DNA from: an uncultured delta proteobacterium
GTDB lineage: Bacteria; Desulfobacterota; RBG-13-43-22
DNA: 40,214 nucleotides
NCBI GenBank assembly: GCA_963802945.1
Contig: CAWDKY010000041.1
Span: 1-40,214, forward strand
Direction of reading: 5' to 3'
Shown here: piece by piece, positions 1,364 through 27,318 of the stretch
Position numbering within the stretch: the first letter of the stretch is position 1
How the letters are laid out: each line of letters begins with the position of its first letter
Notes under the pieces: model-generated
Told to the model about the DNA's origin: nothing
What the model saw: only the letters and a program-made list of their open reading frames with translations
Database searches by the model: none
Program-made: the position numbers and the translations under genes

Positions 1364-1392
1364 TTGACCATTCTGAAACTTACTGATATTAT
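1364..1392 (+). promoter_or_regulatory. sigma70-like cassette promoter (Pc-like)
   Basis: TTGACC (1364-1369)-N17-TATTAT (1387-1392), directly upstream of the attI-like site. Confidence 0.6.
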
Positions 1393-1422
1393 CCAGAAAA
1401 CTGTTTAATAACTTATTATGTG
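1389..1422 (+). mobile_element. attI-like site, copy 1 (variant, core A|TT)
   Basis: TTATCCAGAAAACTGTTTAATAACTTA|TTATGTG resembles TTATCCAGAAAAACTTTAGAATAACTTG|TT at 21433 and 25951; TTATGTG complements R'' CACATAAC at 2031. Confidence 0.65.
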
Positions 1423-1446
1423 TGAAGAATGAACAACAAGAGGGAC

Positions 1447-2044
1447 ATGAAACAATACCTGAGATTGACCGATATTATCGACTGGAACCATTCAGCCGTT
1501 CTTCAAATGGCCCATTCTTTGTCGGCGGAAACGCGGAGATATAGAAGAGACAGTGAGGCGTTGTTATTACTGGGTGAGAGACCAGATAAAGCACAGTTTT
1601 GACTATCAAATGTCTCCTGTTACTTGTTCCGCTTCGGAGGTCATTCTTGCTGGAACCGGCTATTGTTTTGCAAAGAGCCATCTATTGGCGGCTTTGCTAC
1701 GCGCTAATGATATTCCCGCTGGTTTTTGCTACCAACGGTTGAGCCGAGATGACAATGGACCTCCCTTTGTGCTCCATGGTCTTATTGCAGTTCATATGCC
1801 TCAGTATGGCTGGTACAGGATCGACCCGCGTGGAAACCGTCCGGGTGTGGACGCGCAATTCACACCCCCGGTTGAGCAAATCGCGTTTCAACCCAGGCTT
1901 CTGGGTGAGGTGGATCTACCAGAAATATGGCCCGACCCTTTACCTATAGTCGTTCAGGCACTTCGCTCATGTAAGACATGGGATGATTTATGGGAAAATT
2001 TGCCCGACATAGAGCTTTTAGCACGAATAGCACATAACGAATAG
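1447..2044 (+). CDS. Transglutaminase-like family protein (gene cassette; +1 frameshift near 1528)
   Basis: ATG 1447 gives MKQYLRLTDIIDWNH; the +1 frame continues with GYCFAKSHLLAALLRA, HG and GWYRIDPRG (Cys-His-Asp triad); the stop lies inside the attC. Confidence 0.82.
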
Positions 2045-2097
2045 CTCCACCGGAAGTGGCAAAACAGCGTGCCACGCCGGGAAGCATGTTGTTATGC
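2031..2097 (+). mobile_element. attC site
   Basis: R'' CACATAAC ... R' GTTATGC, inner stems CCGG/CCGG and GTGGCA/TGCCAC, at the 3' end of the ORF. Confidence 0.85.
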
Positions 2098-2487
2098 ACG
2101 TGAACAAGACCAAATCAGTTGAAACGGGGACGGTCCACGAAAACTTTTTGATCTTGAAAAAGAAAATATCATCCTGAATCCTGCGTAAAAACAATAGCCA
2201 AAGAATCTATTTAAGAAGAAATTTAGCCTATAAATAAAGTTTAAAGACGAATTTGTTGTTTTTAAATACCTTCTTTTTTAATGTAATGTTAACCTCCTTT
2301 TTAATTGGGCTAATATTATGTCATGAAACACAGTCCGAAAAATTTACAAATTTCATTTTTCGGCAAAATCTTAACACATTTTGGTGGATTATTTTTACTA
2401 AACAAGGATGACCTCTTGAAACGATCGCTTAAACGACATAGTAATAGGAAAGGCCACTTTTCCAAAAAGTAAGGAACTGTCAGAAGT

Positions 2488-2964
2488 ATGAATGTTCAAA
2501 TCAGAAAGGCTACGAATCAAGACGTCCCGGCCATTGCCGAATTATTGAGGTCATTGGAGCTGTTTGATCATATTCAGGCCCAAACACCGGAAGCCGTTCG
2601 AGAGCAGGTTTCCCTCAATCTTGGTATATGTAATACCGACAACGGTCATTCCGTGTACGTGGCCCTGGCCGACGGAGAGATAGTCGGTTATTGTGCCGTG
2701 CATTGGCTGCCCTATCTGCTGCTCCCAGGTCCGGAAGGCTACGTATCGGAACTTTTTTTACGGGAATCATCGCGAGGCTTGGGTATAGGCGGTCAATTGC
2801 TGAAAACAGCCAAGGCCGAAGCCAAAGAACGAGGCTGTTCAAGAATGATGCTGCTCAATCTGCGTAACCGTGAATCTTATAGGCGCCAGTTTTACGAAAA
2901 ACAAGGTTGGGAGGAAAGGCCGGAAGCCATAAATTTCCTTCTAAGAATTGAGGAAGGCTCATGA
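2488..2964 (+). CDS. GNAT family N-acetyltransferase
   Basis: ELFLRESSRGLGIGGQLL acetyl-CoA motif A and FYEKQGW. Confidence 0.9.
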   Translation: MNVQIRKATNQDVPAIAELLRSLELFDHIQAQTPEAVREQVSLNLGICNTDNGHSVYVALADGEIVGYCAVHWLPYLLLPGPEGYVSELFLRESSRGLGIGGQLLKTAKAEAKERGCSRMMLLNLRNRESYRRQFYEKQGWEERPEAINFLLRIEEGS

Positions 2965-4160
2965 GCACCAAGAAGACGATCGAGATTGAAGATCAATGCT
3001 CACCGCCGTTTTTCAGCAAGATACCTGTTTCCATAGAACGCGGTGAAGGAGTTTATTGTTGGGATGAAGAAGGAAACCAGTTTCTGGACTTCACCGCCGG
3101 TTGGGGTGTCACCTGTCTGGGGCACGCTTCTCCGGTCATTAGCAATGCCCTTCTGGAACAAAGCCGGAAGATTATCCAGAACCCGAATTCCGGTTTGACC
3201 TACTCTCCCATACGGGCCAGGCTTCTTTCTCTAATGCGCGAGATATTACCCTCTAACCTGACCCGGGTCTTCTTTTCCAATAGCGGTGCTGAAGCCAATG
3301 ATGCGGCCATTAAACTGGCCCGCAAAGTTACCGGGAGAATGGATGTGATATCCACCCATCAGAGCTTCCATGGGCGGACGATCAGCACAGCCTCGGCCAC
3401 CGGGCAGGCCAAACACCGGGAGAAATTCAATCCCTTGATGCCTAACTATCGTTTTATCCCTTATAACGACCTTGACGCCTTGGAACGAAGTCTCGACAGC
3501 TCTGTTGCGGCAGTAATCCTGGAGCCTGTTCAAGGCGAAGGAGGGGTCCAGATTCCTGCGGATGATTATCTCGAACAAGTCAGTCAATTGTGCAAAACCA
3601 ATAGCAGCCTGCTCATCATTGACGAGGTTCAAACCGGATTCTGCCGTTGCGGCCCCATGTTTGCCGTCAGCCGCTCATGTGCTGAAGTGGACTTTTTGAC
3701 CATGGCCAAAGGCATTGCCGGCGGTTTCCCTTTTGGCGCCTTTGCTATGTCGGAAGCGGTTTCCGCCCGGCTTGAATCCGGAGATCACGGCGGCACTTAT
3801 TGCGGCAATCCACTCGGCTGTGCCGTGGCCTATGCGGTGATCCAACATCTGCTCGACCAGCAGATATCCGCCAATGTCCAGGAAATGGGTGATCTTGCCC
3901 TTCGGCATATGAAGGAATGGAAACAAAATTTTCCGAAAATAGTTACGGATGTTCGCGGCCTGGGCTTGCTTCTGGCTGTTGAGTTCTGTAATGAAGAAAC
4001 AGCCGCTCAGATCACCAACGAATGTCTGGTCCGAGGCCTGTTTGTCAGGCAGACCCAGGGAAACATGATCCGGATCTTCCCGGCCTTGAACATCAAACGT
4101 AGAGAGATGGAAGAAGGTCTGACTATATTTAAGGAAGCCATAGGAAACTATAAAAAATAA
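2961..4160 (+). CDS. argD: Acetylornithine/succinylornithine aminotransferase family (class III PLP)
   Basis: FSNSGAEAN, SFHGRT, EPVQGEGG, DEVQTG, PLP lysine in TMAKGIAGG, HGGTYCGNPL; exact substrate uncertain. Confidence 0.75.
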   Translation: MSTKKTIEIEDQCSPPFFSKIPVSIERGEGVYCWDEEGNQFLDFTAGWGVTCLGHASPVISNALLEQSRKIIQNPNSGLTYSPIRARLLSLMREILPSNLTRVFFSNSGAEANDAAIKLARKVTGRMDVISTHQSFHGRTISTASATGQAKHREKFNPLMPNYRFIPYNDLDALERSLDSSVAAVILEPVQGEGGVQIPADDYLEQVSQLCKTNSSLLIIDEVQTGFCRCGPMFAVSRSCAEVDFLTMAKGIAGGFPFGAFAMSEAVSARLESGDHGGTYCGNPLGCAVAYAVIQHLLDQQISANVQEMGDLALRHMKEWKQNFPKIVTDVRGLGLLLAVEFCNEETAAQITNECLVRGLFVRQTQGNMIRIFPALNIKRREMEEGLTIFKEAIGNYKK

Positions 4161-4210
4161 ATTCTTTGCTATTTAATGGTTAGAGTCTCGAAACAGAAAA
4201 AATAAAGTTA

Positions 4211-4383
4211 CTGGATTCCGGGTCAAGAGACTGTGTCGCAATTATATTTTTGTCATTCCGTGAAAGCGAAGCGCGACACGGAATCCAGTATTTTCATTAA
4301 GTTCTGGATGCCGGCTTTCGCCGGCATGACGGCTTTGATGGCGCTGTCCGCTATTACGACACAGTCTCCAAGCCCGGAATGAC
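4211..4383. repeat. Palindromic GTCATTCC/GGAATGAC-type repeat interrupted by a MITE
   Basis: CTGGATTCCGGGT-CAA-[insert]-CAA-GCCCGGAATGAC. Confidence 0.8.
4227..4368. mobile_element. 142-bp MITE, copy 1
   Basis: Terminal inverted repeats GAGACTGTGTCGCAAT / ATTACGACACAGTCTC, 3-bp duplication CAA, near-identical copy at 19063-19204. Confidence 0.85.
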
Positions 4384-4397
4384 GAAAGGAAACTATT

Positions 4398-4829: not shown

Positions 4830-4831
4830 TT

Positions 4832-4990
4832 GACGGCACAGGAAAAAGTCCATCTCCTGTGTTGCGCTGCACCCTTCCCCGCTTTTCAGCGGGGCAGGCT
4901 TATTGCGGCGTACTTTCATGTACGCCTCATTCCTCAGGACTTGCGCGCCTAGTCCCGCCTTAGGCGGGAGAGCTTTTTTACTGTGCCGTC
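4832..4990. repeat. MITE-like intergenic repeat with terminal inverted repeats
   Basis: GACGGCACAGGAAAAAG ... CTTTTTTACTGTGCCGTC, with internal hairpins GGCGTAC/GTACGCC, CCCCGC/GCGGGG and TCCCGCC/GGCGGGA; lies between convergent genes. Confidence 0.7.
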
Positions 4991-5790: not shown

Positions 5791-7395
5791 TCATTCCAGG
5801 ATTGCTCCTTTGGCTGCGGAGCTGACATATTTGATATACCGCTGCATAAAACCTGGGGGCACGTCTTTTTTTATAGGTTTAAATCCCCGAAGGCGTCGCC
5901 TGATTTCTTCATCGGAAAGTCTCACCTCGATTTTTCGATTAGGGATGTCGATTTCTATCTGGTCCCCGTTTTGCAGTGCAGCAATGGGCCCTCCCACATA
6001 AGCCTCCGGTGAGATATGCCCCACACACGGCCCCGAAGTGGCGCCGGAAAAACGTCCGTCGGTAATCAGGGCCACTTGCTTCAATCCTGAGGTTATAATA
6101 GCCATGGTAACCGCCAACGTTTCCGGCATACCCGGTCCCCCTTTGGGTCCCTCATAGCGAATGACGATCACGTCTCCTTCTTTGATTTCTTTCTCACGAA
6201 AGGCCTTCAGGGCATCGGCCTCTGAGTCCATCACCCGCGCCTGACCGGTAAATTGTCCGCATCTCCGGATCCACGGCCGATTGCTTGATCACGGCACCAT
6301 CCGGGGCCAAGTTTCCAAAAAGAATCACCGTGCCGCCTTCGGGCAGAAAGGGTTTGTCCCTGGGGGGAATAATGGTTTCATCCATGACCTGTGACGGTCT
6401 TTACCACTTCTTTAAACGTTTGCCCGGTGACCGTCATAGCCTCCAGGTGAAGATCGTCAGCCATTACCTTCATAACGGCCGGGATCCCTCCGGCTGCATA
6501 AAGATCCAGGATTTCATGGGGCCCGCTGGGGGTGATGGACAAAAGCGTAGGGATTTTTCGATTGAGTTCGTTGAATCTGGACAGGGGCAGGGTCAGACCC
6601 AGTTCGTGGGCAATGGCCGGCAAATGAAGGGTCGAATTGGTCGAACCGCCTATGGCCAGGTCCATGATGACTGCATTCTCGATGGCCTTGGCAGTCAGGA
6701 TCTTCCTGGCCGAAAGCCCTTCTTCGACCATCTGAACAATCCGTTTTGCCGGACTGACGGGCAAAAAGCAACTTGTCGGTATGAAAGCCGGGGACATTGG
6801 CTGAACCGGGGATCGTCAATCCCAAGACTTCGGCCATACATTGAAAGGTGTTGGCCGTTCCCATCAGATCACAGGCCCCGCAGGAGGCTATATTTCCACT
6901 GCCAGGTCGTTTAGGTCCGATCAGCCGTCTCTGCCAGATGCTGGGTCCGCCGGTCAAAAAGATGGTGGGGAGGTCCAGCCGGGCGGCGGCCATGATCATC
7001 CCCGGGATGATCTTATCGCAACTGGCGATCATGACCATCCCGTCAAAAAGCATACTGCGGACATGAGTCTCGACTATATCGGCGATCAGCTCCCGCTGGG
7101 GCAAAATATATCGCATACCTTCATGACCTTCCGTCATCCCATCACAGGGGGCCGGGACATTGAACTCAAAAGGAATGCCGCCGGCAGCATGGACCCCGTT
7201 CTTGACTTTTTCGGCCAGGAGGCCAAGGTGCATGTGTCCGGGGTGCAGCTCCGTATGGGAATTGACCACGGCAATTAAGGGCTTTTCTCTGAGCTCTTCG
7301 ATGTCGGTCCCTGTGCCCCTGACCATGGTTTGTCGAATACGATTGATCGGAAAATCCTTATCATCCAGCAGCGGCATACTCTTCGGTTTTTTCAT
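5791..7395 (-). CDS. ilvD: Dihydroxy-acid dehydratase (IlvD/Edd family), split by three +1 frameshifts (about 6745, 6392, 6256)
   Basis: [60 protein letters not shown] spread over four ORF pieces; RBS AAGGAGG before ATG 7395. Confidence 0.85.
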
Positions 7396-7572
7396 GGCCA
7401 ATCCTCCTTAAGACCTTTTTTATCGTTCGGAGAACGATTATAAATAATTCTTTGTCTTGTTGAATCTAACTGTAAAAACATTTTTCAACTTATAAACGGG
7501 AGTGTTATTCGGTCGTCCCTTAAAACCCCAAAGGCTGAGCGAGTAAATTATTAATCTTTGAATAGGGAAGAT

Positions 7573-8184
7573 TTAGGCCGACTCAAACAGCATCGCCCTG
7601 CTCAGGGCAATTTGAGGTCTTTCCTTCTTGCGCAGGCCGGCCTTGATGGCCTCATCAATGGTCTTTTCGAAGGCACGTTCGGTTACGTGCATCTTGGGCT
7701 CAACCAGCAAGTATTGTCCTTGCGCTTTCATTAAATTTTTTATGTCCCATAGGAATTTCCCTTGATCCGGAACTTCATGCACCATCCAGAAAGTCAGGAC
7801 AAAGTCCGCCTTCTCATCAATGACTAAATTCTCCGAGGTACTCAGAACCGTACGAAGCTGTGAAAAGACGCCGGCCTTTTCCGCCCGTTTTTTTACTCTG
7901 TTCAGCATTTGCTCCTGGATATCCACAGCAATGACCTTCCCGCTTTTACCCACAAGTCTGCACAGGGGGATAGTAAAATAACCCATACCCGGCCCGATAT
8001 CAATGACCGTGAATCCGTCCTGGACATAGGGACTAAGGAGCTGTGTCGGATTATGGAATATTTTACGAATCGGGTTGTCAAAGGTAAAACAGCACCACCA
8101 AGGACAAACGTGTTTGTATCTGGCGAAAATAATATCAAATGGATTTTTCACATTAACTCTCCTACTAGAATTTAACGACTTCAC
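7573..8184 (-). CDS. Class I SAM-dependent methyltransferase
   Basis: HVCPWW N-terminus, DIGPGMGYF motif I, VDIQEQML, FWMVHEVPD; start uncertain. Confidence 0.85.
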   Translation of the reverse strand: MKSLNSSRRVNVKNPFDIIFARYKHVCPWWCCFTFDNPIRKIFHNPTQLLSPYVQDGFTVIDIGPGMGYFTIPLCRLVGKSGKVIAVDIQEQMLNRVKKRAEKAGVFSQLRTVLSTSENLVIDEKADFVLTFWMVHEVPDQGKFLWDIKNLMKAQGQYLLVEPKMHVTERAFEKTIDEAIKAGLRKKERPQIALSRAMLFESA

Positions 8185-8247: not shown

Positions 8248-9630
8248 CTATGGCTCACAACAGACCATGTCCTTCCCGTTCTTTTTCGCCTGGTACATGA
8301 GCTGATCAACCCGGTGAACGAAGACCTTCATTTCTTCCTGATGCTTGTATTGCGCAATTCCGATGCTCACCATCACATGGATGTCTTGACCCGGCGCCGG
8401 GGAGAAAGTCTCCTTCTTGAACTCCGTCCGGATTCTTTCCGCTGTAACAGCGCCGTCCGCGCTTGTTGTCATGGGCAGGAGGATGGTGAATTCTTCGCCA
8501 CCATAACGATAAGCGAAATCCGTCTCGCGCAGGCATCTTTTGAGCACCTGGCCGATTCGCATCAAGACCTGATCTCCCTCAACATGGCCGTAAGCGTCGT
8601 TGAATGCCTTGAAATTATCGAGATCAAGCATAAGGAGGGTTAAAGGCAGTTCATAGCGGTTCGACCGGTCTAATTCGATTTTAAGTTGAAAGTAAAAATG
8701 CCGGGAATTGTAAAGCTGGGTGAGGTCATCGACAATACTGAGTTCGCGATATTTTTTTTCGCTTTCCATCAGCAAGGCCTCCACCTCTTTTTGCTTGCTG
8801 ATGTCGATGAGCGTCCCGCTAGCGCCGACAAATATGCCGTTTTCTATTCGGGGTTTTGTGCTGGTCCGCACCCATCTAAAATTACCGGCTTTGTCTTTGA
8901 ACCTGTAGCTCAATGGCTTTTCTACACCGTCGCTGAGTTCCACAAATCGCTGCAGTAAAAGGTCCCGATCATCCGGATGGACAAGTTCAATGAAGTTCTT
9001 CCCAATGACATCTTCCCGATTGTATCCCCAGATATCCTTTCCAGGCTGACTAAAATAGAGTACCACTCCCCGATGATCAACATCGAAGATGACATCGCTG
9101 ATATTTTCCACCAGATTCCGGTATTTCTCCTCACTTGCCTTGAGAGCCTCCTCTGTTTGCTTGCGCTCGGTGATGTCTTTCAGAAAATTCAAAGAAGCAG
9201 CTTTCCCCTTCCAGTGGACAAAAACTGCCTTAGCCTCAACCCACCTGACAACTCCATCCTGCCTAACAACCCTGAAAGAATAAAATGGGGGGACTTCTTC
9301 ACCACTCATTCTTTTGATATGACGCTCTATTACCAATTCACGGTCATCCGGATAGATGAACTCAATAGAAGGCTTTGAGGTTAATACTTCCAGAGGATAT
9401 CCAAGTATTTTAACGCCACCAGGATTGATAAATTTTAGTCTTCCCTCTTGTTCAATAGAAATCGATTCTGTCGCATTTTCAACAACAAGACGATATTCCT
9501 CTTCACTTTCCTTGAGTGCCTCTTCCGCAAATCGGGACTTAGACTCTGCTTCTTCCAAATGGGTTGCTTGCCGACGAAGTGCTTTTAACTCCTTGATCAG
9601 TTCCGCTTTAGTTTTATGGTTATCATTCAT
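8248..9630 (-). CDS. PAS-PAS diguanylate cyclase (GGEEF)
   Basis: Two PAS/PAC domains, DLDNFKAFNDAYGH.EGD, RETD I-site, RYGGEEF. Confidence 0.93.
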   Translation of the reverse strand: MNDNHKTKAELIKELKALRRQATHLEEAESKSRFAEEALKESEEEYRLVVENATESISIEQEGRLKFINPGGVKILGYPLEVLTSKPSIEFIYPDDRELVIERHIKRMSGEEVPPFYSFRVVRQDGVVRWVEAKAVFVHWKGKAASLNFLKDITERKQTEEALKASEEKYRNLVENISDVIFDVDHRGVVLYFSQPGKDIWGYNREDVIGKNFIELVHPDDRDLLLQRFVELSDGVEKPLSYRFKDKAGNFRWVRTSTKPRIENGIFVGASGTLIDISKQKEVEALLMESEKKYRELSIVDDLTQLYNSRHFYFQLKIELDRSNRYELPLTLLMLDLDNFKAFNDAYGHVEGDQVLMRIGQVLKRCLRETDFAYRYGGEEFTILLPMTTSADGAVTAERIRTEFKKETFSPAPGQDIHVMVSIGIAQYKHQEEMKVFVHRVDQLMYQAKKNGKDMVCCEP

Positions 9631-9659
9631 CTTGTAAATTTCCAGGCGATGAATTTAAT

Positions 9660-9696
9660 AATAAAAACCCCACCTCTCTTTTAAGAAACGGGGGTT
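9660..9696 (-). terminator. Intrinsic terminator-like hairpin, repeat copy A
   Basis: Minus strand AACCCCCGTTTCTTAAAAGAGAGGTGGGGTTTTTATT, about 30 nt upstream of the GGDEF ATG and just downstream of the HD-GYP stop. Confidence 0.65.
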
Positions 9697-9721
9697 ATTA
9701 TTCCATCGACACACCTTATTT

Positions 9722-13399: not shown

Positions 13400-13427
13400 T
13401 TTTAAAGTCTCCAGTTGAAGCATTTAC

Positions 13428-13824: not shown

Positions 13825-14836
13825 TTAACAAATCCTGGGGAGTTGTTCGCCGGTCAACATATCAATCAGTCGTTTCCCGCCGATAAGGGTTTTCATGACC
13901 ACCTTTCCGGGATTTTCCGCCTTCACTTCTCCGATCAGGGCAGCCTCCTGTCCGTAGGGGTTCTTTTTCATGGCGGCCAGGACGACTTCGGCCTGGGCTT
14001 GCGGCAGAATGGCGATTAATTTTCCTTCATTGGCAATATAAAGTGGATCCAGTCCCAGGATTTCCGAAGCGGCCAGGACACTCGACCTGATCGGGTATGG
14101 ACTCTTCCCAAAGCTCGATCCCGACAGAGGATTGTCCGGCGATTTCATTTAAGGTAGTGGCCAGCCCTCCACGGGTGGGATCGCGCAGCACATGAATTTG
14201 GGAACCGGTCTTTAACATCTCCTGAACCAATTGATTTAAAGGGGCCGCATCGCTTTTCAAGGGAGAATCAAAAGCCAGTCCTTCTCTCTTGGAAAGGATG
14301 GTCATCCCGTGATCTCCGATCGTACCGCTGATCAAAACGGCATCTCCCGGTTCGGCATTCTGCCCGGCGATGCGGATGCCTTCAGGAATAAGGCCGATCC
14401 CGGAGGTATTGATGAAGATCTTGTCAGCTGCACCCTTGGGAACCACCTTGGTATCGCCGGTAACCACTTGGACTCCGGCTTCCTTGGCTGCCCTTTCCAT
14501 GGAAAGAATGATCTGATCCAGATCTTTGATCGGAAATCCTTCTTCGATGATGAAACCGACGCTTAGAAAATAAGGACGAGCCCCTCTCATAGCCAGATCA
14601 TTGACCGTGCCGCAAACAGCCAGAGAGCCGATGTCACCACCTGGGAAAAAAATCGGGTCCACCACATAACTGTCGGTGGTAAAGGCCAGCCTGGCACCGC
14701 TCAATTCAAAAACAGCGCTGTCATTCATTTCATTTAAGAAAGGGTTTTGAAACCGGGGAACAAAAACCTTTTCAATCAATTCATGGGAGGCCCGGCCTCC
14801 ACTGCCGTGATCCAGGGTGATTTTATCAAAAGACAT
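13825..14836 (-). CDS. hypE: Hydrogenase maturation protein HypE (+1 frameshift about 14094)
   Basis: HGSGG, TTDSYVV.P.FFPGGDIG, GDTKVV, RDPTRGG; C-terminal GEQLPRIC in the shifted frame. Confidence 0.92.
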
Positions 14837-18923: not shown

Positions 18924-18974
18924 AAGTTAATATGAAAACAACCACAAACTAAGTTGATAGCTTGTTTGTTTATT

Positions 18975-19218
18975 GTCATGCCGGACCCCGTATCAAGTAC
19001 GGGGCAAGCCCGATCCGGCATCCAGGAAGCTTGATGCTTATATAACCTGGATTCCGGCTTTCGAGACTGTGTCGCAATTATATTTTTGTCATTCCGTGCA
19101 AGCGAAGCGCGACACGGAATCCAGTATTTTCATTAAGTTCTGGATGCCGGCTTTCGCCGGCATGACGGCTTTGATGGCGCTGTCCGCTATTACGACACAG
19201 CCTCTCCGCCGGAATGAC
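18975..19218. repeat. Palindromic repeat doublet interrupted by a MITE
   Basis: GTCATGCCGG...CCGGCATCCAG then CTGGATTCCGGCT-TTC-[insert]-TCC-GCCGGAATGAC. Confidence 0.75.
19063..19204. mobile_element. 142-bp MITE, copy 2
   Basis: Matches 4227-4368 apart from two substitutions seen by eye; flanks TTC/TCC. Confidence 0.85.
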
Positions 19219-19413
19219 AATTCAATCCCAACCAAAGTAATTTTTTCATCCTTCGTAATGCCCCCGAACTCCCTTCTTCCTAAAAAAGGCTCAAAAATCC
19301 AGTGGACTTTTGGCCTCTTTAATCGTGACCTTCTTCACCGTATGGATGCAGATCATTGCTGTCCGCACATTCTTACTCCTAGTCTAACAATAAAACATTA
19401 GGGAATAGAAATG

Positions 19414-19542
19414 ATTTGTCAAGACAATATTTACCATTTATAATAGGTTACAAAGTGTCTGAGAGGGTTGGCAAACCATAACTCATCTCAAACAGAATAA
19501 TGATCAGGGTTGCCTTCCCCAATTTAGATTTTAAATGGAGTT
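19414..19542 (+). promoter_or_regulatory. Repeated cassette-leader element with a near-consensus promoter (attI part missing)
   Basis: Close copy of 25821-25950; TTGTCA (19416)-N17-TATAAT (19439). Confidence 0.75.
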
Positions 19543-19547
19543 GTTGC

Positions 19548-20366
19548 ATGAATATAAATTTAGGTGGTATTCAAGAAACTCTATTAATACCATTATGGAG
19601 TCGTGCAAAATTCAGTAAGGAAAATAACCCTATACTTGTTGATTCAAGAGCAGTAGATATCGTTAAAAAAATCCCATATAATTTTAGTAAAATAGATAAA
19701 AATTTTCCTTATTTTCTTCATTTCCAGAATTTAGCCAGAACAAAGATGCTAGATACTACCATTAAAGAATTTTTATCAAATCACCCAAAAGCAACAATTG
19801 TAAACTTAGGAGCAGGATTGGATACTACGTTTTATCGAGTCGATAATAGATTATTAAATTGGTATGATATTGATCTTCCAGATGTTATTGAAATTCGGAA
19901 CAAACTTATCCCTGGAGCTGACCGCCTGCATTATATTGAGGGCTCGATATTTGAAATGAAATGGGTAAAAAATATTGCAAACGCTAAAGATGGAATTCTA
20001 TTTATAAGTAATGGCGTTCTAGAATATTTTCAGAAAAGTGTGGTTAAAAAATTCTTATCTGATATGGCAGATAATTTTCCAGAAAGCGAAATCGTATTTA
20101 ATACCATACGCAGGAATATAATAATTTCTTATTTTAACAGAAGAATGATGAAACGATTAGGGATGAAATCAGCAACTACTAAATGGGGAATTAAAGATCC
20201 AGAGAAAATAAAACGATGGGATAAACGCATTGTTGTCTTAGCAAGTTATCCACTTTTTTCAAAAATAAAAATACAAAGAAATTGGGATACAAATCATGTA
20301 AAAGCAATGAACCGTTTTGATAAATGGAAGGCAGTAAACATAGTGCATTTGAAATTCATGAAATAA
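19548..20366 (+). CDS. Class I SAM-dependent methyltransferase (leucine carboxyl methyltransferase/TcmP-like)
   Basis: ETLLIPLWSRA, VNLGAGLDT.FYR, WYDIDLPDVI; strongly AT-rich, followed by a half attC. Confidence 0.87.
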   Translation: MNINLGGIQETLLIPLWSRAKFSKENNPILVDSRAVDIVKKIPYNFSKIDKNFPYFLHFQNLARTKMLDTTIKEFLSNHPKATIVNLGAGLDTTFYRVDNRLLNWYDIDLPDVIEIRNKLIPGADRLHYIEGSIFEMKWVKNIANAKDGILFISNGVLEYFQKSVVKKFLSDMADNFPESEIVFNTIRRNIIISYFNRRMMKRLGMKSATTKWGIKDPEKIKRWDKRIVVLASYPLFSKIKIQRNWDTNHVKAMNRFDKWKAVNIVHLKFMK

Positions 20367-20373
20367 TTAAATT

Positions 20374-20400
20374 TTCTAACAATAAAATCGAGCCTGATGC
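20374..20400 (+). mobile_element. Degenerate attC, left half only
   Basis: TTCTAACAATAAAATCGAGCC just after the stop codon (RYYYAAC-like box plus L''-like box); no R' found. Confidence 0.4.
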
Positions 20401-20441
20401 CGCTGGCTATTTTCCATTTCGAAAAATTCAACGGTGGACCC

Positions 20442-21107
20442 GTGGATGACCATGTAAGAAGGACCATCGCTACCTATGATATCATTGCACCTCATTACGG
20501 GGTAACGGCGACCTCTGAACTGCGGGCCTGGGAAGAGTCATCAATGCGGTTGTTCGCGGGCTATCTTTCTGGGACTAAAGTCCTCGTTCCTGGATGTGGA
20601 GATGGACGAGATTCAAGATATTTGTCTTCTCTTGGGCTCGATGTATTATCGTTCGATCTATCCGACGGAATGCTCCAAGAAGCACGTAAGCTGGATGGGC
20701 ACGCACGATATGTGAAGCTCGACCTCCGTGAAGTTAGCTCTCTTGCGCAGACCTTCGATGGCGTTTATGCCAGCGGGTGCTTGTACCATTTGTCTCGAAG
20801 GGAATTTGAAGCCTTTATCCGGGACACTTATGTCATGCTGGAGTTAAATGGTGTCTTCTACCTCAACATGAAAATCGGCATAGGTGAAGAGTATAGCGCG
20901 GTTCCAGGTGACCGGTATCCCGGAGGTGAACAAGCGCGACAGCTTTTGACGGGAGACCGCTACTACGTGTATTATCAGCGGAAGGAACTGGCCCATTACT
21001 TGCGAAGCTATCAGCTCTTGCACGAACGCGATATCCAGTACGCAGAGGAAGCCGTCGAATTATGGGTGCGTAAGAGTCCCGAGGCGAACCAAGGTAGGCA
21101 GGTATAG
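20442..21107 (+). CDS. Class I SAM-dependent methyltransferase
   Basis: TIATYD, VLVPGCGDGRD, FDLSDGML, FDGVYASGCLYHL; start uncertain. Confidence 0.85.
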   Translation: MDDHVRRTIATYDIIAPHYGVTATSELRAWEESSMRLFAGYLSGTKVLVPGCGDGRDSRYLSSLGLDVLSFDLSDGMLQEARKLDGHARYVKLDLREVSSLAQTFDGVYASGCLYHLSRREFEAFIRDTYVMLELNGVFYLNMKIGIGEEYSAVPGDRYPGGEQARQLLTGDRYYVYYQRKELAHYLRSYQLLHERDIQYAEEAVELWVRKSPEANQGRQV

Positions 21108-21269
21108 GTAGACTCAAACGATGAAATACGTCATCCGAGAACTAATATGTGCTGGTCTACCGACGATGTTATCTCTCTGTGTTCAACCGTACGTAGACGC
21201 AATAAGAGTCATGGACTTCGTCCAGCCATGGGTTCAGCCTTGTTTTTAAAGTTGAGAGCAAAAAAAACT

Positions 21270-21336
21270 GTGGAACGAGTCGCTGGGGCCAATCGGCAAC
21301 AAAGAGCGCTGCCTCTGGCTCAGCTTTTTGTTGAAC
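21270..21336 (+). mobile_element. Degenerate attC site
   Basis: ...GAAC GAGTC GCTGGGGCCA ... TGGCTCAGC TTTTT GTTGAAC; the L boxes pair, R'' is imperfect. Confidence 0.6.
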
Positions 21337-21399
21337 GACAAGAATGAAAACTAATCGCCATAGGAATGCGCCTAATGAGCCGTAAGCACTTTCAAATCG

Positions 21400-21467
21400 G
21401 GGTTGCCTTCCCCAAGACTTAAAAATGTAGTGTTATCCAGAAAAACTTTAGAATAACTTGTTAGGCC
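21400..21467 (+). mobile_element. Truncated leader plus attI-like site, copy 2
   Basis: GGGTTGCCTTCCCCAA...TTATCCAGAAAAACTTTAGAATAACTTG|TTAGGCC; identity with the 25.9 kb copy ends immediately after GTTA. Confidence 0.75.
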
Positions 21468-21483
21468 GTCTAAGGAAGATCGG

Positions 21484-22158
21484 ATGATAGGAAAAATTTT
21501 AACCACGGGGTTTGAGAACGCATTATGTGCCGATTGGCGCATTGTCCGCACTCACCTCGATGCTGTCTGTATTCTGATCGAACGTAATTCCGATTGTACT
21601 CCTCCCCTTATCGCACAGCGTTTACTTGTTTCAGGGGAGGACCACAGACATCCGCGTCATCCGGGTTTCGACTTGATTGCCATTGGACGTGCATGCTGGC
21701 GCCGCCTCAGTTGCGGAACCCATGAAGGTGGCAGCACAATTGAACAGCAGATCGTCCGTGTGTTAACGGGACGGTACGAACGCACCGTCACCCGCAAACT
21801 TCGTGAGATTGCACTCGCAGCCCTCGTTGCTAGACGCTACCCCAAACATCGACTTCCTGCGGCATATCTGTGGATTGGATACTACGGGTGGCGAATGAAC
21901 GGGTACCTACAAGCCTGTCGGCGGCTTGGGATGCCACCACAGTCCCTTAGCTCAGAGGAAGCGGCTATGCTTGTCGCTCGTTTAAAGTACCCTCAGCCTA
22001 GGGAAGCGTCGACCCACAGGGTATTACAAATCGAGCGACGGGCGAAGCACCTTCGTGCGCTTTATCAACGACATTTATTCGACGGAACATATAGGCATCT
22101 TAATGGCCCGACCCTTTACAAACGATCCACGTCTATCGAGCCACTTCCCCAGTCCTGA
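21484..22158 (+). CDS. Transglycosylase (GT51)-domain protein without a membrane anchor (cassette gene 1)
   Basis: GEDHRHPRHPGFD (EDxxFxxHxG-like), GGSTIEQQ, RKLRE motifs; no hydrophobic N-terminus. Confidence 0.75.
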   Translation: MIGKILTTGFENALCADWRIVRTHLDAVCILIERNSDCTPPLIAQRLLVSGEDHRHPRHPGFDLIAIGRACWRRLSCGTHEGGSTIEQQIVRVLTGRYERTVTRKLREIALAALVARRYPKHRLPAAYLWIGYYGWRMNGYLQACRRLGMPPQSLSSEEAAMLVARLKYPQPREASTHRVLQIERRAKHLRALYQRHLFDGTYRHLNGPTLYKRSTSIEPLPQS

Positions 22159-22777
22159 CGAACTGGAGAAGACATTGGCTAAAGCGTCACGCACCTCGCG
22201 CGAGGTTGTCGCACGGTTGTGGCTGAGCGAAGGTCTTCCATCTGCCTTTCTCACTTCTCCGGCAGTTTATGAAGACCTTCGCGGTTGGCTCGCCTCTCGA
22301 CTGAACGTTCATCCCAAAGAGATAACCCTCATTGGGAGCGCTAGAATCGGTTATTCGCTTTCACCGCCACCCGAGTTCGGGCGCCCCTTTGCTGTAAGAT
22401 CCGATCTCGATTTATGTATCGTATCCCGCGACCTTTTCCAGCGCGTAACCGCATCATTCGATGAATTTTCGGCTGACTACAGATCCGGGGCTGTGACCCC
22501 GAGAAGCCAACATGAACGGCACCTATGGGATGAGAATCTTATTTTTGGTGAACGCAACATCCCTCAAGGGTTCTTCGACCCTAATAAAATACCAAATTTT
22601 GATCGCTACCCTGTCGCGCAACAGGTAAGCCAGTCAATGTGGATGCTGGTGAAGAGACTTGAAGTCATACTCAATGCACCACAGGTTAGACGAGCGTCGA
22701 TTCGCGTCTACCGCGATTGGCAAAGTTTTATTGATAAGGTGTCATTTAATCTCATGGTTGCGTTGAAGAAGGCCTAA
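22103..22777 (+). CDS. Pol-beta-superfamily nucleotidyltransferase-like protein (cassette gene 2)
   Basis: hGS motif LIGSARIGYS ... SDLDLCIVS; the TAA stop lies within attC R''. Confidence 0.7.
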   Translation: MARPFTNDPRLSSHFPSPDELEKTLAKASRTSREVVARLWLSEGLPSAFLTSPAVYEDLRGWLASRLNVHPKEITLIGSARIGYSLSPPPEFGRPFAVRSDLDLCIVSRDLFQRVTASFDEFSADYRSGAVTPRSQHERHLWDENLIFGERNIPQGFFDPNKIPNFDRYPVAQQVSQSMWMLVKRLEVILNAPQVRRASIRVYRDWQSFIDKVSFNLMVALKKA

Positions 22778-22830
22778 CAATTCACTGGTGCGGAAGCAAA
22801 AAAGGAGCACCGCACAGCTCCGCATTGAGC
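22771..22830 (+). mobile_element. attC site (R' mutated to ATT)
   Basis: R'' GGCCTAAC is the exact complement of cassette start GTTAGGCC (21460); CTG.TGCGG/CCGCACAG stem; R' ATTGAGC. Confidence 0.8.
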
Positions 22831-22861
22831 TGCAACACATAAAGATGAAGGACTGGAGCAA

Positions 22862-23626
22862 ATGAACGGGCAGATCAGAGAGAATCCAGACTATGGCAAT
22901 TGGACTCCAAAACTAATAATTTATGTTCCTCTCGCAATAGCGCTCCTGTTCCTGGCATCGAGTCTCATGTGGTCTTTCCTGCTCATTCCGGCCGCCTTCT
23001 TCTTGCTGGTCGCTGCCTTTCTATTGTACGTTCGCTTCAAGCTTTCTCCTAAAACAGGAAATGTGCAAGAATCCATTTGGAAGCTCGTATTAGATCATTT
23101 GGATTGGAATGGAGAAGGCAGGGCCTTGGACATAGGTTGCGGGAACGGTGCCCTGGCCATCAAGCTGGCTCAGAGGCACAACAGGGCACACGTCCTCGGA
23201 ATAGACTATTGGGGAAAGAGGTGGGATTACTCGATGAAGGTCTGTGAACGCAACGCAGCGATTGAGGGAGTCAGTGACCGCGTGACGTTCCAGAAAGGCA
23301 GTGCCGCCTCATTGCCATTCGCTGATGAGTACTTCGATGCAGCGGTGAGCAATTTCGTCTTCCACGAGGTAGGCGGTGTCAAAGACAAGCGTGAAGTTAT
23401 TCGTGAAGCATTGCGGGTTCTTAAGAAAGGTGGCAAGTTCGCTTTTCAAGACGAATTTCTCATCAAGAAGATGTATGGTGATCCAGACGCGTTACTCACC
23501 ACTGTCAAGGGTTGGGGAATAGCCAAAGTGGAGTTCATTCAAACCAGAAATTTGCCTTTTATCCCACGCCTGTTGAAAGCGCCATTCATTTTGGGGACTA
23601 TGGGGATGATACGGGGAGAGAAATGA
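22862..23626 (+). CDS. Membrane-anchored class I SAM-dependent methyltransferase (cassette)
   Basis: Two N-terminal hydrophobic helices, LDIGCGNG, LPFADEYFDAAVSN, EALRVLKKGG; RBS GGAG. Confidence 0.88.
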   Translation: MNGQIRENPDYGNWTPKLIIYVPLAIALLFLASSLMWSFLLIPAAFFLLVAAFLLYVRFKLSPKTGNVQESIWKLVLDHLDWNGEGRALDIGCGNGALAIKLAQRHNRAHVLGIDYWGKRWDYSMKVCERNAAIEGVSDRVTFQKGSAASLPFADEYFDAAVSNFVFHEVGGVKDKREVIREALRVLKKGGKFAFQDEFLIKKMYGDPDALLTTVKGWGIAKVEFIQTRNLPFIPRLLKAPFILGTMGMIRGEK

Positions 23627-23642
23627 GCAGCACACACAATAA

Positions 23643-23700
23643 CAGCCCAACGAATCGTTCCACCGGATCGCTTAAGCTCCCAGTGAACTCGTTATTAGGC
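23643..23700 (+). mobile_element. attC site (R' mutated to ATT)
   Basis: R'' CAGCCCAAC versus cassette start TTGAGCTG (one mismatch); GTTCCAC/GTGAAC L boxes; R' ATTAGGC. Confidence 0.8.
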
Positions 23701-23791
23701 GCATATTATTAAACCAAAACATTCTTACATATACGTTATTCCCATATGAAAACGCTTATAAAGGAGGATTTATTCAGTATATACATGTTTT

Positions 23792-23855
23792 AACGCAGAT
23801 CTTCTAACTCCTTAATCTGTGCGCTTTGGTCTTTTTGTCATCTTTCATTTTTAAA
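23792..23855 (-). pseudogene. Remnant 5' end of a PAS signalling gene (MKDDKKTK...KELEDLR)
   Basis: 23824-23855 is identical over 32 nt to 13375-13406. Confidence 0.7.
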
Positions 23856-24007
23856 TAGGCATTAGCAGGGAACTAATGCTTTGCGTGGCTACAATCGGGG
23901 TTTCGGCTGGCGCAAGCAGCTGCACTTCAGAGCGCCGTTGCCCATCATCGGTGCTTCGCCGCCGCGCCTCGGAACCTAGTCATGCCCGGGGAACTCGGAG
24001 TGAGGTC

Positions 24008-25486
24008 CTACCGAACGACCTCGATGGCGGGAAGCCGATACGCTTTGGGATCGGTCAGCTCTTCGATCATCGCTGGTCCTGGCGCGTAAGCGCGCAGGAT
24101 CAGATAAAAAGGACCGGTCGGCGCAGGCAGCCAGTTTTGCACGCGAGCCTGTCCCGGGTTCGCGGCCTGAATATAAATCGTCGTCGTTCCATCGGCGTTG
24201 GTGGTTAGCGTGTTATCGCTGCCCAAAGAATAGCGATCGATCGAGTTCGGTACGGTGTAATTGTTCGTCGTATCGTACATCGTCACCGACCAGAAGCCTG
24301 GTTCGACAAACGGCGGCAGCTGGTGAAACATGATCGTGTAGCGATTGGCGCCACTCAAGAGAATACCGCGGCTGTCCGTGCCACCGTAGTAGTACGTGGC
24401 CTCCGTGGGGGTATTTAGCGTTATCCCTTCGCGCCCGGCGACGGCACGCGTTCTATAGTCGGTTCCGAAGTTGCCGACGGTCGGCGGCGACACGAACCAG
24501 CCACCCTCGAAACGGCCGGCCGGCAACTTGCGCAGCAGCGGGCCGATCGCGGCGGCAGCGCGATTCATGGCGGCAAGGGTGATCGGGTCCACCACAGAGG
24601 GGCGCCACTGCTTTCCCAGTTCGATACCGAGAGGTTTGAACATCGGAAGCAACGCGGCGATTTGACTCGCAGGCGGCGGATTTTCATTCATGGCAGCGGA
24701 GAAAATCTCCCAAAACTGCGCGGGATCCGCGAAATTCAAGGCGCTGGCCGATTGACGCTTGTCCGTAACGACGGGAACGGCGTAGTTGTACGCCGGAGTC
24801 GCCGGCGGCTGTTGTCCGAGGAACTGCGCAAGACCTTGTGTTGTAATGCCGTTGAGCACGGCTCGTGAAGTCGCGAGATCGCCTTGATTCTTCAAGTGGA
24901 CGCGCGGCTGAATCAGCACCCATCGCGTCGGAGAATCGATTCGCTGTATACCGTCCGGCAGCGTGCCCTTCCATCCGGGACCGACCAAGGCGAACTTGCC
25001 GCCCTTGTAGCCGTTGACAGCGCCGGCCGGATACGCGAACGCGTTCGTCCACATGTCGCAGACCTCGACCATGTAGTAAAGGCCCTTCGAATCCGGAAGC
25101 GTCAGAATGATCGGCTGCGGCCCGAGATCGAGAAAGCCGAATCCGTAGATCGTGTTCACGTTGGGTGTTACGTAGCCCGACTCTTCTGACAGTTGCGGTG
25201 TCGAAATGTTCGGCATGCGCCAAATATCATTGGGCGCCGCCTTCGGAGAGGGCCCGAACGTATCGTTGTAACGCAGGTTATACATACTGACGAGCGGGGC
25301 GCCATAGGTTGCCGCGTCGATCGCGAGCGCATAGGACCAGTCGGAAAGAGCCTTTACTTGTGAAGGCGGAAGTGAAACCCTCGCCGTAGGCGCGGCGGCC
25401 ACGCCCTGCGCTCCCGCTGCGGTGCCAAAGGCAATAAAAAACCCCAGTAGACCCGCCGCCAGCAATTCTCTCTTTAAGATCTTCAT
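24008..25486 (-). CDS. Exported DUF1254/DUF1214-domain protein
   Basis: Signal peptide, TPNVNTIY, DMWTN, GFWSVTMYD, NWLPAP, LRAY.P; visibly GC-rich; RBS GGAGG. Confidence 0.85.
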   Translation of the reverse strand: MKILKRELLAAGLLGFFIAFGTAAGAQGVAAAPTARVSLPPSQVKALSDWSYALAIDAATYGAPLVSMYNLRYNDTFGPSPKAAPNDIWRMPNISTPQLSEESGYVTPNVNTIYGFGFLDLGPQPIILTLPDSKGLYYMVEVCDMWTNAFAYPAGAVNGYKGGKFALVGPGWKGTLPDGIQRIDSPTRWVLIQPRVHLKNQGDLATSRAVLNGITTQGLAQFLGQQPPATPAYNYAVPVVTDKRQSASALNFADPAQFWEIFSAAMNENPPPASQIAALLPMFKPLGIELGKQWRPSVVDPITLAAMNRAAAAIGPLLRKLPAGRFEGGWFVSPPTVGNFGTDYRTRAVAGREGITLNTPTEATYYYGGTDSRGILLSGANRYTIMFHQLPPFVEPGFWSVTMYDTTNNYTVPNSIDRYSLGSDNTLTTNADGTTTIYIQAANPGQARVQNWLPAPTGPFYLILRAYAPGPAMIEELTDPKAYRLPAIEVVR

Positions 25487-25820
25487 CGTTCCCTCCTTCT
25501 CTAGTGCCGTCGCAGGGCTGCGATGCACGTTATATTATAGCTTGGAAGACGATTTCTTGTCAAAAGCTCCTCCGGAATCTTGGACTCACCCAAAATCAAT
25601 TTAATGTTTCGTGACGCCTGTTTCAAGCAGGCATAAGGGTTTAATACCAAATTTCTTCTAAGAGTGGAGTATAAGATAAGGATAAGAATGGATCAAGGAG
25701 AAAAAGAGGCTAACCAGGTGACCCTACAGGATTTAGGGCCGGGAACCTGTAGAAATAAAAAGGAAAATTCCCTTTAATGCGAAATCAAAAAATTAAATCC
25801 GTCCCTTTAAATCTAAAATA

Positions 25821-25950
25821 ATTTGTCAAGATAATACTTATCATTTATAATGGGTTACAAAGTTTCTAAGAGGGTTGGCAAACCATAGGTCATCTAAAAC
25901 AGAATAATGATCAGGGTTGCCTTCCCCAATTTAGACTTTAAAATGTAGTT
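25821..25950 (+). promoter_or_regulatory. Repeated cassette-leader element with promoter(s)
   Basis: TTGTCA (25823)-N17-TATAAT (25846); second candidate TTGCCT (25917)-N16-TAAAAT (25939). Confidence 0.75.
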
Positions 25951-25986
25951 TTATCCAGAAAAACTTTAGAATAACTTGTTATGTGT
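25951..25986 (+). mobile_element. attI-like site, copy 3
   Basis: TTATCCAGAAAAACTTTAGAATAACTTG|TTATGTGT; GTTATGTGT is the exact complement of R'' ACACATAAC at 27245. Confidence 0.75.
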
Positions 25987-26045
25987 AAGAGAGGAAAAGT
26001 CAGAATTCTAAAAGAACAATATAAAAAATGGTGTTTATACCTCCA

Positions 26046-26087
26046 AATTAACAGTATATGAACAATGAATATATACAAGCGTTGGCG
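26046..26087 (+). mobile_element. Short degenerate attC-like site
   Basis: AATTAAC AGTATATG ... TATATAC AAGC GTTGGCG. Confidence 0.45.
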
Positions 26088-26099
26088 GCAACTTGAGAA

Positions 26100-27143
26100 A
26101 TGAATAAATTAATATTAGCAATTAAAGAGAATTGGAAAGATCCGGTTTGGAGTAAAGTCATTGCTGCGGGTATCATTTCTGTCGCGGGGTTTATTTTGAC
26201 TACTCTTTATTCATTAATAAAATCGCTATTTACCAAAATTTCATTTGGAGATGCACTTAATGAAGTTGGGACATTTCTAAACAAGAATATAGACCTGAAA
26301 GTGTGGTTAATTATTGCTCTATCAGTCTTATATATGATTCTTGTCTTTAACCAATTCACATCACTGATTAAGAACATTTTCATTAAGCTCAAGAGTCCTC
26401 GCACTAAAACTAAAGAACCCACTGAACCAGAAGTGCCACGGGCAACAGAACACTCAACATCCTTATTTTATCAAAGAATGGCTAGTGCGTTTCCTGGCAT
26501 AAGAGAAGTAACATGGATTGAGAACCCAAAAGACGCAACAAATAGACTGGAAATTCTTTTGCAAAAACCATTGAGATTCAAATCGGATTTAGGAGAGTTT
26601 GAGTCAGACCCAATTTGGTGGTTTAGGGGAAGTAGCGCATTATATATTGAATTGTTTAAAAAGTTAGGAAGTAGAAAGATTCTAATGAATTTTGACCAAT
26701 TAAAAATAAGAAGGATTGCAGCTTATCATGATGATTCCTATTACAAAAATTTCGTTTACGTTGAGGTTGAAGGCGAGAAACAAACAGGACTTTATAATTT
26801 GACAGAAGAAGATATACAAAGGCATATAGATAAGTTTGGTTATAGCCGTGAAGAATATGGACTGATTAAGAACAAGCTTGGGTGGAAGACACCAATCCGT
26901 AGAGAAAACCATGACGATGGAGCTACGGTAATCAAGGGGAAAGTTCGTGACATAAAGAATGCAGAGCTAAGGGTCAGATATATTTCCCAATACAATTTTA
27001 TAATTGCTGCTAAAGGATCACCTTATAACTCTCGTAAATTCGATAGAAATTCAGAGAATTATCTAAACGGTATATTAAAGGGTGAAGTTGACCCAAATGA
27101 ATTTTTCGAATTCTTAAAAGGATTTCAAAAACATGAACAATAA
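26100..27143 (+). CDS. Hypothetical membrane protein (two N-terminal TM helices; cassette gene)
   Basis: 347-aa AT-rich ORF, WKDPVWSKVIAAGII hydrophobic start, bounded by GTTGGCGG and CCGCCAAC. Confidence 0.8.
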   Translation: MNKLILAIKENWKDPVWSKVIAAGIISVAGFILTTLYSLIKSLFTKISFGDALNEVGTFLNKNIDLKVWLIIALSVLYMILVFNQFTSLIKNIFIKLKSPRTKTKEPTEPEVPRATEHSTSLFYQRMASAFPGIREVTWIENPKDATNRLEILLQKPLRFKSDLGEFESDPIWWFRGSSALYIELFKKLGSRKILMNFDQLKIRRIAAYHDDSYYKNFVYVEVEGEKQTGLYNLTEEDIQRHIDKFGYSREEYGLIKNKLGWKTPIRRENHDDGATVIKGKVRDIKNAELRVRYISQYNFIIAAKGSPYNSRKFDRNSENYLNGILKGEVDPNEFFEFLKGFQKHEQ

Positions 27144-27149
27144 AAACTA

Positions 27150-27231
27150 CCGCCAACAATCTATAAGCGTAATGCGGGCGGACAGTGAATCGCTCCGAAA
27201 CCCGCACTAGGCTTATACTTGGCCGTTGAGA
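27150..27231 (+). mobile_element. attC site (inner cassette)
   Basis: R'' CCGCCAAC, TATAAGC/GCTTATA and GCGGG/CCCGC stems, R' GTTGAGA. Confidence 0.8.
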
Positions 27232-27244
27232 ATGATTAATGAGA

Positions 27245-27318
27245 ACACATAACAAATCACTGCACTGGATTTTTACTCCGCTCCGCCACGTAAAAACCAG
27301 TAAATTCAATCGTTAGTT
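27245..27318 (+). mobile_element. attC site (outer cassette)
   Basis: R'' ACACATAAC, ACTGG.TTTTTAC/GTAAAAACCAGT stem, R' GTTAGTT. Confidence 0.85.

Follow-up and report, generated by a model that had tools for sequence, protein, structure and literature searches.

Probable integrase-less integron remnants with their own attI platforms in a genome of an uncultured Thermodesulfobacteriota genus

Sedentary chromosomal integrons with an inactivated integrase gene (intI) are known, for example in Xanthomonas, as are complex class 1 integrons in which attI1 is present twice, such as In104 of Salmonella genomic island 1 (SGI1); these complex integrons arise by duplication of the 5'- and 3'-conserved segments (5'-CS/3'-CS) on mobile elements and keep intI1. 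Here we describe repeated promoter-attI modules, referred to as pads, on a 40,214-nucleotide contig of an uncultured delta proteobacterium (the window), which is the entire contig C41 of G000, the 4.37-Mb, 72-contig assembly of this organism; G001, G002 and so on denote related genomes, and Cn a contig of the named genome. An earlier sequence-only reading had taken the pads for a cassette promoter (Pc) and attI platform that had itself been amplified, giving a distributed integron served in trans by a distant IntI. The part of Cury et al. 2016 (PMC4889954) consulted here defines clusters of attC sites without an integron integrase as CALINs, which may stem from integrase loss in one of several integrons, and reports 36 genomes that encode more than one IntI and an unknown attI for most integrons. 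Cassette insertion by IntI outside att sites is described in the consulted portion of a preprint (bioRxiv 10.1101/2022.09.11.507474).

Our results favor, with a probability of about three in four, the view that the pads are integron platforms of an uncultured Thermodesulfobacteriota genus, that the window holds three integrase-less remnants whose cassettes were inserted by IntI in the past, and that the pads are most likely frozen, because the assembly contains no IntI. As in the Xanthomonas chromosomal integrons, a conserved chromosomal locus shows integrase decay and species-specific cassettes; unlike there, many such loci occur per genome, intI has been removed by near-complete deletion that leaves the 5' untranslated region (5'UTR) and/or the last codons, and the platform sequences are almost unchanged. 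As in In104 of SGI1, attI is present more than once in a single structure and every copy has a first-position cassette of its own, but here the second attI (21396-21463) directly follows an attC and no integrase is present. The absence of an intI next to the attC arrays is shared with the CALINs and multi-integron genomes in the consulted part of PMC4889954. Unlike there, attI and the putative integrase and cassette promoters (PintI/Pc) are identified here, so that the arrays can be shown as whole platforms minus intI, and ~20 attI sites of three types are present in one genome from which every intI is gone. Insertion outside att sites, as far as the consulted portion of the preprint describes it, likewise accounts for scattered cassettes expressed from local promoters; here, however, the scattered cassettes are not at arbitrary sites but are preceded by a conserved sequence of attI type that brings a conserved promoter of its own. 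A literature search for dispersed attI sites in chromosomal integrons, judged by titles and the starts of abstracts, returned none. On the basis of this search and of the comparison with the consulted part of Cury et al. 2016, the finding is a well-resolved variant of integron/CALIN biology and not a new kind of system.

The repeated module is well defined in the window, where the pads, cassettes and attC sites described below lie on the plus strand. The 31-mer TTATCCAGAAAAACTTTAGAATAACTTGTTA occurs exactly at 21433-21463 and 25951-25981, and these two matches at up to 3 mismatches compare with 0.00 expected from 100 shuffles. The leader copies at 19409-19535 and 25816-25942 are 91% identical; by blastn, identity is 90.4% over 135 nt for the copy at 19409-19542, 90.3% over 72 nt for the partial copy at 21396-21463 and 85.4% over 41 nt for the variant at 1389-1428. 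The sequence-only reading had listed the identical 31-mers at 21433 and 25951, the leader with TTGTCA-N17-TATAAT at 19414 and 25821 (placed here at 19409 and 25816) and the partial copy near 21400, all of which were reproduced; its variant at 1389 is also present but belongs to a distinct attI type, type 3. The promoters TTGTCA-N17-TATAAT at 19416-19444 and 25823-25851 each score 11/12 and rank among the top three promoter-like sites of 18900-27400, and from this consensus match they are predicted to serve as Pc and to read into the cassettes.

The module consists of a promoter block, a poorly conserved leader of ~85 nt and a conserved attI block of ~30 nt, and in an alignment of 16 copies from the genus the promoter block and the attI block GTTATCCAGAAAAACTTTAGAATAACTTGTT alone are conserved, with the ~85 nt between them variable. 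The attI block follows the pattern GTTATCC-N15-GAATAAC-TT-GTT with the crossover at G|TT, and its L/R/DR-like boxes (GTTATCC ... ATAAC-TT-GTT) are read as putative IntI sites. On the opposite strand the -35 element of Pc, TTGTCAA, reads TTGACAA and is followed by N16 and TAAAAT, an arrangement that looks like a shared divergent PintI.

We searched for the motif in 13 further genomes of the genus, 7 from elsewhere in the family and 20 from outside the family but within the phylum, and detected intI with the TIGR02249 profile at its cut-off of 265 bits. The full 167-nt module (promoter, leader and attI) is separated by ~90 nt from the start codon of a divergently oriented intI in G002:C47, G001:C166 and G007:C174, and the IntI proteins of these three genomes score 354-386 bits. 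This is the canonical intI / PintI-Pc / attI arrangement, and because the whole module adjoins a divergent intI in three relatives the repeat is a genuine attI. The sequence-only reading had named a motif copy beside intI as a check on its proposal; such copies exist in these relatives, and G000 has about 20 attI-like sites and no intI. An intI above the cut-off was present in 6 of the 13 genus relatives. The intI locus of G009:C5, where response-regulator genes adjoin intI and no pad motif is found, was uninformative. The genus IntI proteins at loci L042, L044 and L043 have an N-terminal extension of ~180 aa, in open reading frames (ORFs) of 463-524 aa.

The pads are numerous in G000 and recur among its relatives. 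The 25-mer CAGAAAAACTTTAGAATAACTTGTT has 14 copies at up to 5 mismatches on 10 contigs of G000, against a chance expectation that we estimate at ~0.1. Similarity ends at GTT in all 14 of these copies and likewise in the 16-sequence genus alignment, as the sequence-only reading had noted for the window, but the core of its variant copy (1415-1417) is ATT. The motif was found in 10 of the 13 other genus genomes, in 1 of the 7 other family genomes and in 0 of the 20 genomes of other families in the phylum, and the multi-site pattern is genus-wide. The attI-like sites of G000 comprise three related types. The 31-mer family makes up type 1. Type 2, with the end ...AAGAAACTATTCAATATATTGTT, occurs in 14/14 genus genomes; its two copies in G000, on C29 and C30, both adjoin an ORF that resembles the IntI N-terminus, and a type-2 site in G006:C32 is ~135 nt away from a divergent type-2 intI truncated by the contig end. 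Type 3, which includes the window copy at 1389, has its own TTGACC-N17-TATTAT promoter overlapping the attI-like block, with 4 copies in G000 and a presence in 6/14 genus genomes. Type-3 similarity stops at the core in 12/12 loci, and type 2 breaks at the core in the same way. The ORFs beside the type-2 pads of G000, at C30:105897-106094 and C29:23937-24143, are 66-69 aa long and resemble the IntI N-terminal extension.

Several arrangements around individual pads were also observed. A short GC-rich palindrome, GTTGGCGnCGCC...GGCGnCGCCAAC, directly follows the attI core at C53:153203, C37:13805 and C27:189056 of G000 and at loci L179 and L187 in relatives; some of these copies then carry a recurring element (…CAACCAGGCCATTGGACACC…), and the palindrome and the element may represent an ORF-less cassette or attC family. 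At C30:216422-216837 of G000, the promoter and the attI block of a pad are separated by a small HicB-like ORF, much as two methyltransferase genes separate promoter and attI at 19543-21395 of the window. A gene of ~370 aa, here gene X, is upstream of the pad in G005:C33 and downstream of the first cassette in G000 C37:6000-25000. On C37 the pad is still preceded by a 55-nt copy of the 3' end of gene X, and the gene itself is followed by a type-3 pad, giving the order Y-x'-P1-cassette-X-P3 against Y-X-P1 in G005:C33.

No intact intI was detected in G000, where the best TIGR02249 score is 79.6 bits against the cut-off of 265. A second search, with a hidden Markov model (HMM) built from the IntI proteins of five relatives and run against the six-frame translation of G000, returned only two Xer-like proteins, a 388-aa recombinase, the two N-terminal-like ORFs of 66-69 aa and a fragment in the window. 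Pfam assigned an integrase domain to 0 of the 39 window ORFs, in line with the sequence-only reading, which had recognized no recombinase ORF there; it had, however, passed over the remnant of the intI C-terminus at 19294-19383 on the minus strand. This stump comprises the last ~26-30 codons, has Cys at the position of the catalytic Tyr, is 77-81% identical by tblastn to the IntI C-termini of relatives (hmmsearch E 7.9e-8) and lies directly left of the promoter at 19416. A signature of the intI 5'UTR and ribosome-binding site (at most 1 mismatch in 24) was found beside the pads at C26 and C37 and at C16, and more weakly at C27. Vestiges of an own intI are thus retained by at least four or five pads of G000 (the window stump, C16, C26, C37 and probably C27), and therefore much of the multiplicity reflects separate integrons that each lost an integrase. 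This is at odds with the proposal that the platform itself had been amplified.

Among relatives, intI stumps are present at G005:C49, G005:C33, G006:C95, G004:C16, G004:C38 and G010:C20. Only the last 18-38 codons of intI are kept at three loci, namely 19294-19383 of the window, L167 (G005:C49) and L018 (G006:C95), and in G005:C49 the last intI codons are fused to the first ~42 codons, which looks like a recurrent near-complete internal deletion of intI. At locus L051 (G004:C38, 6560-9388) a type-1 pad has an upstream intI N-terminal remnant, and its first 'cassette' is a co-oriented tyrosine recombinase ORF (7031-7837) that is ~30% identical to IntI, with an attC at 9291-9388. Just past the 3' end of the window stump lies one copy (19047-19204) of a 158-nt repeat, rich in GC palindromes and resembling a miniature inverted-repeat transposable element (MITE) or repetitive extragenic palindrome (REP), of which the other copy, at 4211-4368, is 96% identical.

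The attC sites were searched with a covariance model, R1, built from 7 attCs that all lie outside the window and were re-trimmed before alignment. A fold-based attC scanner of our own was dropped for its many false positives within coding regions, and R1 was used instead. With filters off, the five best distinct window sites are all on the plus strand, just after or across ORF ends. Three of them, at 2033, 27248 and 22773, are the attCs that the sequence-only reading had named, which were thus recovered by an independently built model, and the other two are at 23646 and 21271. The bases that follow the attI core were also said to complement the R'' of a downstream attC in all three cases. This is exact for 21462/22771 (GGCCTAAC) and 25980/27245 (CACATAAC), but the 1417/2032 pair has a complement of 7 nt only (ACATAAC). 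Across the genus, an exact 8-mer complement of the post-GTT bases, ending in AAC, was found downstream in 7/25 distinct attI copies, compared with 6/594 in a cross-locus control, and behind these complements lie an imperfect hairpin and a GTT R' box. In 173 kb around ten other G000 pads, searched with filters off, all 20 matches at E<=1 lie downstream of the attI-like site and on its strand; these include one seed and four matches that rely on the weak attI-like site C28:186917. A filtered genome-wide search gave 22 matches, roughly half of them near recognized pads. Together with the adjacency to intI in relatives, these attCs bear out the earlier interpretation of the repeat as a Pc-attI platform, each copy with its own cassette or cassettes. 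The sites at 21271, 22773 and 23646 and those at 27151 and 27248 form groups of at least two attCs with no neighboring intI ORF, as in CALINs.

The first of the three proposed remnants would be a type-3 pad at 1364 with one cassette. Its platform (1364-1417) has TTGACC at 1364-1369, N17 and TATTAT at 1387-1392, overlapping the attI-like block ATTATCCAGAAAACTGTTTAATAACTT (1388-1414), followed by the ATT core at 1415-1417. The cassette at 1416-2093 begins with TTATGTG, complementary to the R'' ACATAAC at 2032, and encodes a transglutaminase-like ORF (Pfam Transglut_core, E 2.5e-14) that is split into 1429-1602 and 1553-2044 by an apparent frameshift. Its attC at 2033-2096 is the top R1 match of the window (28.2 bits, E 2.6e-6; constrained DNA fold -14.7 kcal/mol).

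The second would be a type-1 integron at 19294-23699 in which intI was deleted down to its stump and which has a second, internal attI. Next to the stump, the platform copy at 19390-19542 carries the putative shared PintI/Pc promoter (-35 at 19416-19421, -10 at 19439-19444) and the leader to position ~151, and its attI block is missing. It is followed by an inserted block (19543-21335) with two S-adenosylmethionine (SAM)-methyltransferase ORFs, 19549-20366 and 20397-21107 (Pfam LCM and Methyltransf_25), that ends in a weak attC-like site at 21271-21335 (R1 11.7 bits, E 0.75). The internal attI at 21396-21463, 60 nt after this site, comprises leader positions 111-182 and the full attI block with its GTT core at 21460-21462. 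Behind it are a cassette at 21461-22829, with a GT51 transglycosylase-domain ORF at 21484-22777 (apparent frameshift; Pfam Transgly, E 6e-28) and an attC at 22773-22829 that has an exact R'' complement and a degenerate R' (ATT; R1 14.4 bits, E 0.09), and a cassette at 22830-23699, with a SAM methyltransferase at 22862-23626 (Pfam) and an attC at 23646-23699 (R1 13.4 bits, E 0.21).

The third, located at the ancestral site beside hypF, would be a type-1 pad (25816) followed by a single cassette. The platform is complete (25816-25981), with -35 at 25823-25828, -10 at 25846-25851, the leader and the attI block at 25951-25981, whose GTT core is at 25978-25980. The cassette (25979-27317) encodes an ORF of unknown family at 26100-27143 with ~35% GC, for which Pfam, NCBIfam and PADLOC gave no match, followed by an attC-like hairpin at 27151-27231, identified by folding only, and an attC at 27248-27317 (R1 16.4 bits, E 0.02; R' GTT at 27312-27314). 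For the cassette ORFs overall, PADLOC and NCBIfam returned generic methyltransferase and transglycosylase matches only.

Synteny with relatives determined how many remnants are present. Behind hypF (16647-18923 in the window), G004:C29 has a full intI and G011:C102 an intI fragment. The HypF protein of G005, the nearest relative, is 91% identical; there, the sequence beside hypF matches 25630-25784 of the window and then continues with a type-2 pad and ~4 kb of cassettes unlike those of the window. The two genomes are homologous again from 27311, where the GTT of the last attC lies, so that the variable region ends exactly there. This synteny places 25816-27317 at the ancestral integron site next to hypF. 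Compared with G005, G000 has an additional segment, 18929-25629, which contains the intI stump together with a pad, cassettes and a DUF1254/DUF1214 gene. From this comparison, 19294-23699 and 25816-27317 are two neighboring integron remnants and not one array, and the third is at 1364.

In the mechanism that we propose, the junctions suggest that the cassettes entered in the past by IntI-catalyzed attI x attC recombination at G|TT. Recombination in G000 would now be inactive, and the frozen pads should still act as promoters for the gene directly behind them. The ~20 pads may go back in part to several independent integrons after loss of their intI and in part to platform duplication or replacement inside or beside arrays. 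We speculate that two attCs flanking the internal attI could, if they recombine, excise an attI-carrying unit, which would be a possible route of spread. Because attI and Pc remain unidentified for nearly all chromosomal integrons, CALINs can usually not be traced to their origin. Here the attI, the PintI/Pc region and the stumps together directly show that CALIN-like loci can be whole platforms minus the integrase, repeatedly and genus-wide. If the pads are mere fossils, they represent a well-documented but ordinary case of integron decay.

Several observations weigh against this interpretation. Three of the ten G000 pads searched with R1 (C33:37470, C53:153203 and C30:216837) have no downstream match, and an exact R'' complement was found in just 7/25 copies, at loci most of which offered only 1.5 kb downstream. 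R1 itself was built on 7 seeds that we chose by the complementarity criterion, its E-values are rough, and three of the five window matches have E between 0.09 and 0.75. None of 12 type-3 loci has its pad beside an intI. Among 20 genus loci inspected for ~1.5 kb to each side of attI, a long intI is present at 3, a remnant at 5 and neither at 12, and loss of an own integrase is thus not demonstrated for most copies. The attI and promoter blocks are near-perfect in the intI-less G000, G005 and G008 and beside strongly decayed stumps, a state that would not be expected of a dead site and that hints at continuing selection through a trans-acting IntI or through a promoter/5'UTR function. Finally, 72 contigs and an estimated contamination of 6.7% leave room for an unassembled intI.

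The best-surviving alternative is an active distributed integron, close to the earlier proposal, in which an IntI encoded elsewhere (unassembled, on another replicon or acquired periodically) serves the orphan pads in trans and the pads are selected as first-position expression slots. Sequence conservation is consistent with this, as the 25-mer is perfect in 5 G000 copies and has at most 2 mismatches in 9/14, the 29-nt promoter is identical in several copies, and the C26 module is 89.8% identical compared with 42% amino-acid identity for the adjacent intI N-terminal remnant. Moreover, G001, G004 and G007 hold a full-length intI together with attI copies that have none or only a stump beside them. 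However, the G000 assembly, which is 100% complete by marker genes, has no IntI, none was found at E<=1e-30 in G005 (7 copies) or in the 20-contig G008 (5 copies), and several pads clearly once had their own intI. We consider this alternative unlikely for G000, where service in trans by a distant IntI, as the sequence-only reading had it, is unsupported; in the relatives that keep intI it is structurally possible. The more general idea that detached multi-copy pads are landing and expression sites of the genus, served in trans by one or an occasionally acquired IntI and placing many cassettes promoter-proximal at once, is also unlikely but not negligible. If true, this selection would have left its mark in the near-perfect state of attI and promoter blocks whose neighboring integrase genes are decayed or missing. 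The genus offers a natural system for asking whether IntI serves orphan attI in trans and how a genome tolerates ~20 attI, with three related attI types and cognate IntI types on offer for testing.

With a small probability, the module is instead kept mainly as a regulated 'mobile promoter' or 5'UTR with the operator GATAA-N3-TTATC, its attI nature being historical and irrelevant to its persistence. The 29-nt promoter block has 15 copies in G000; in some of them the attI block is absent, or genes intervene between it and the promoter (C17:439228, C30:216422 and 19416 in the window). In most G000 copies of the 25-mer an ORF with a ribosome-binding site starts 20-40 nt past GTT. The palindrome GATAA-N3-TTATC sits between -35 and -10, and 7 of its 19 genomic occurrences are within pad promoters; the remaining 12, however, show no evident regulon, and no link to LexA was shown. 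Nor is the leader RNA fold unusually stable (z = -1.17; 26/200 shuffles fold at least as well), and an Rfam scan of the window at gathering thresholds gave 0 matches. Since the sharp GTT boundary and the complementary attCs are left unexplained, a promoter function is an addition to the integron interpretation rather than an alternative to it. That the repeat is the end of an insertion sequence (IS) or MITE with an outward-reading promoter, which the sequence-only reading had named as a refutation and which its dispersed, multi-copy nature and sharp 3' boundary might suggest, is very improbable, as neither module type has terminal inverted repeats, the 5' boundary varies (target-site duplications were judged by eye only), promoter-only and attI-only copies exist, the module adjoins intI in relatives and downstream attCs complement the junction.

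Other features of the window were recorded alongside the integron remnants. Split frames at 5791-7401, 13825-14836 and 32334-33844 affect the core genes ilvD, hypE and the NiFe hydrogenase large subunit, and the cassette ORFs 1429-2044 and 21484-22777 are likewise split into two overlapping or adjacent frames, which suggests assembly indel errors rather than true pseudogenes in core and cassette genes alike. The DUF1254/DUF1214 gene between two of the remnants (24008-25563, minus strand) has a perfect TTGACA-N18-TATAAT promoter (12/12) and is missing from the syntenic G005 locus. At 8248-13423, two large multi-PAS signaling proteins, one with GGDEF and one with HD-GYP, contain internal PAS repeats with a period of 372-378 nt.

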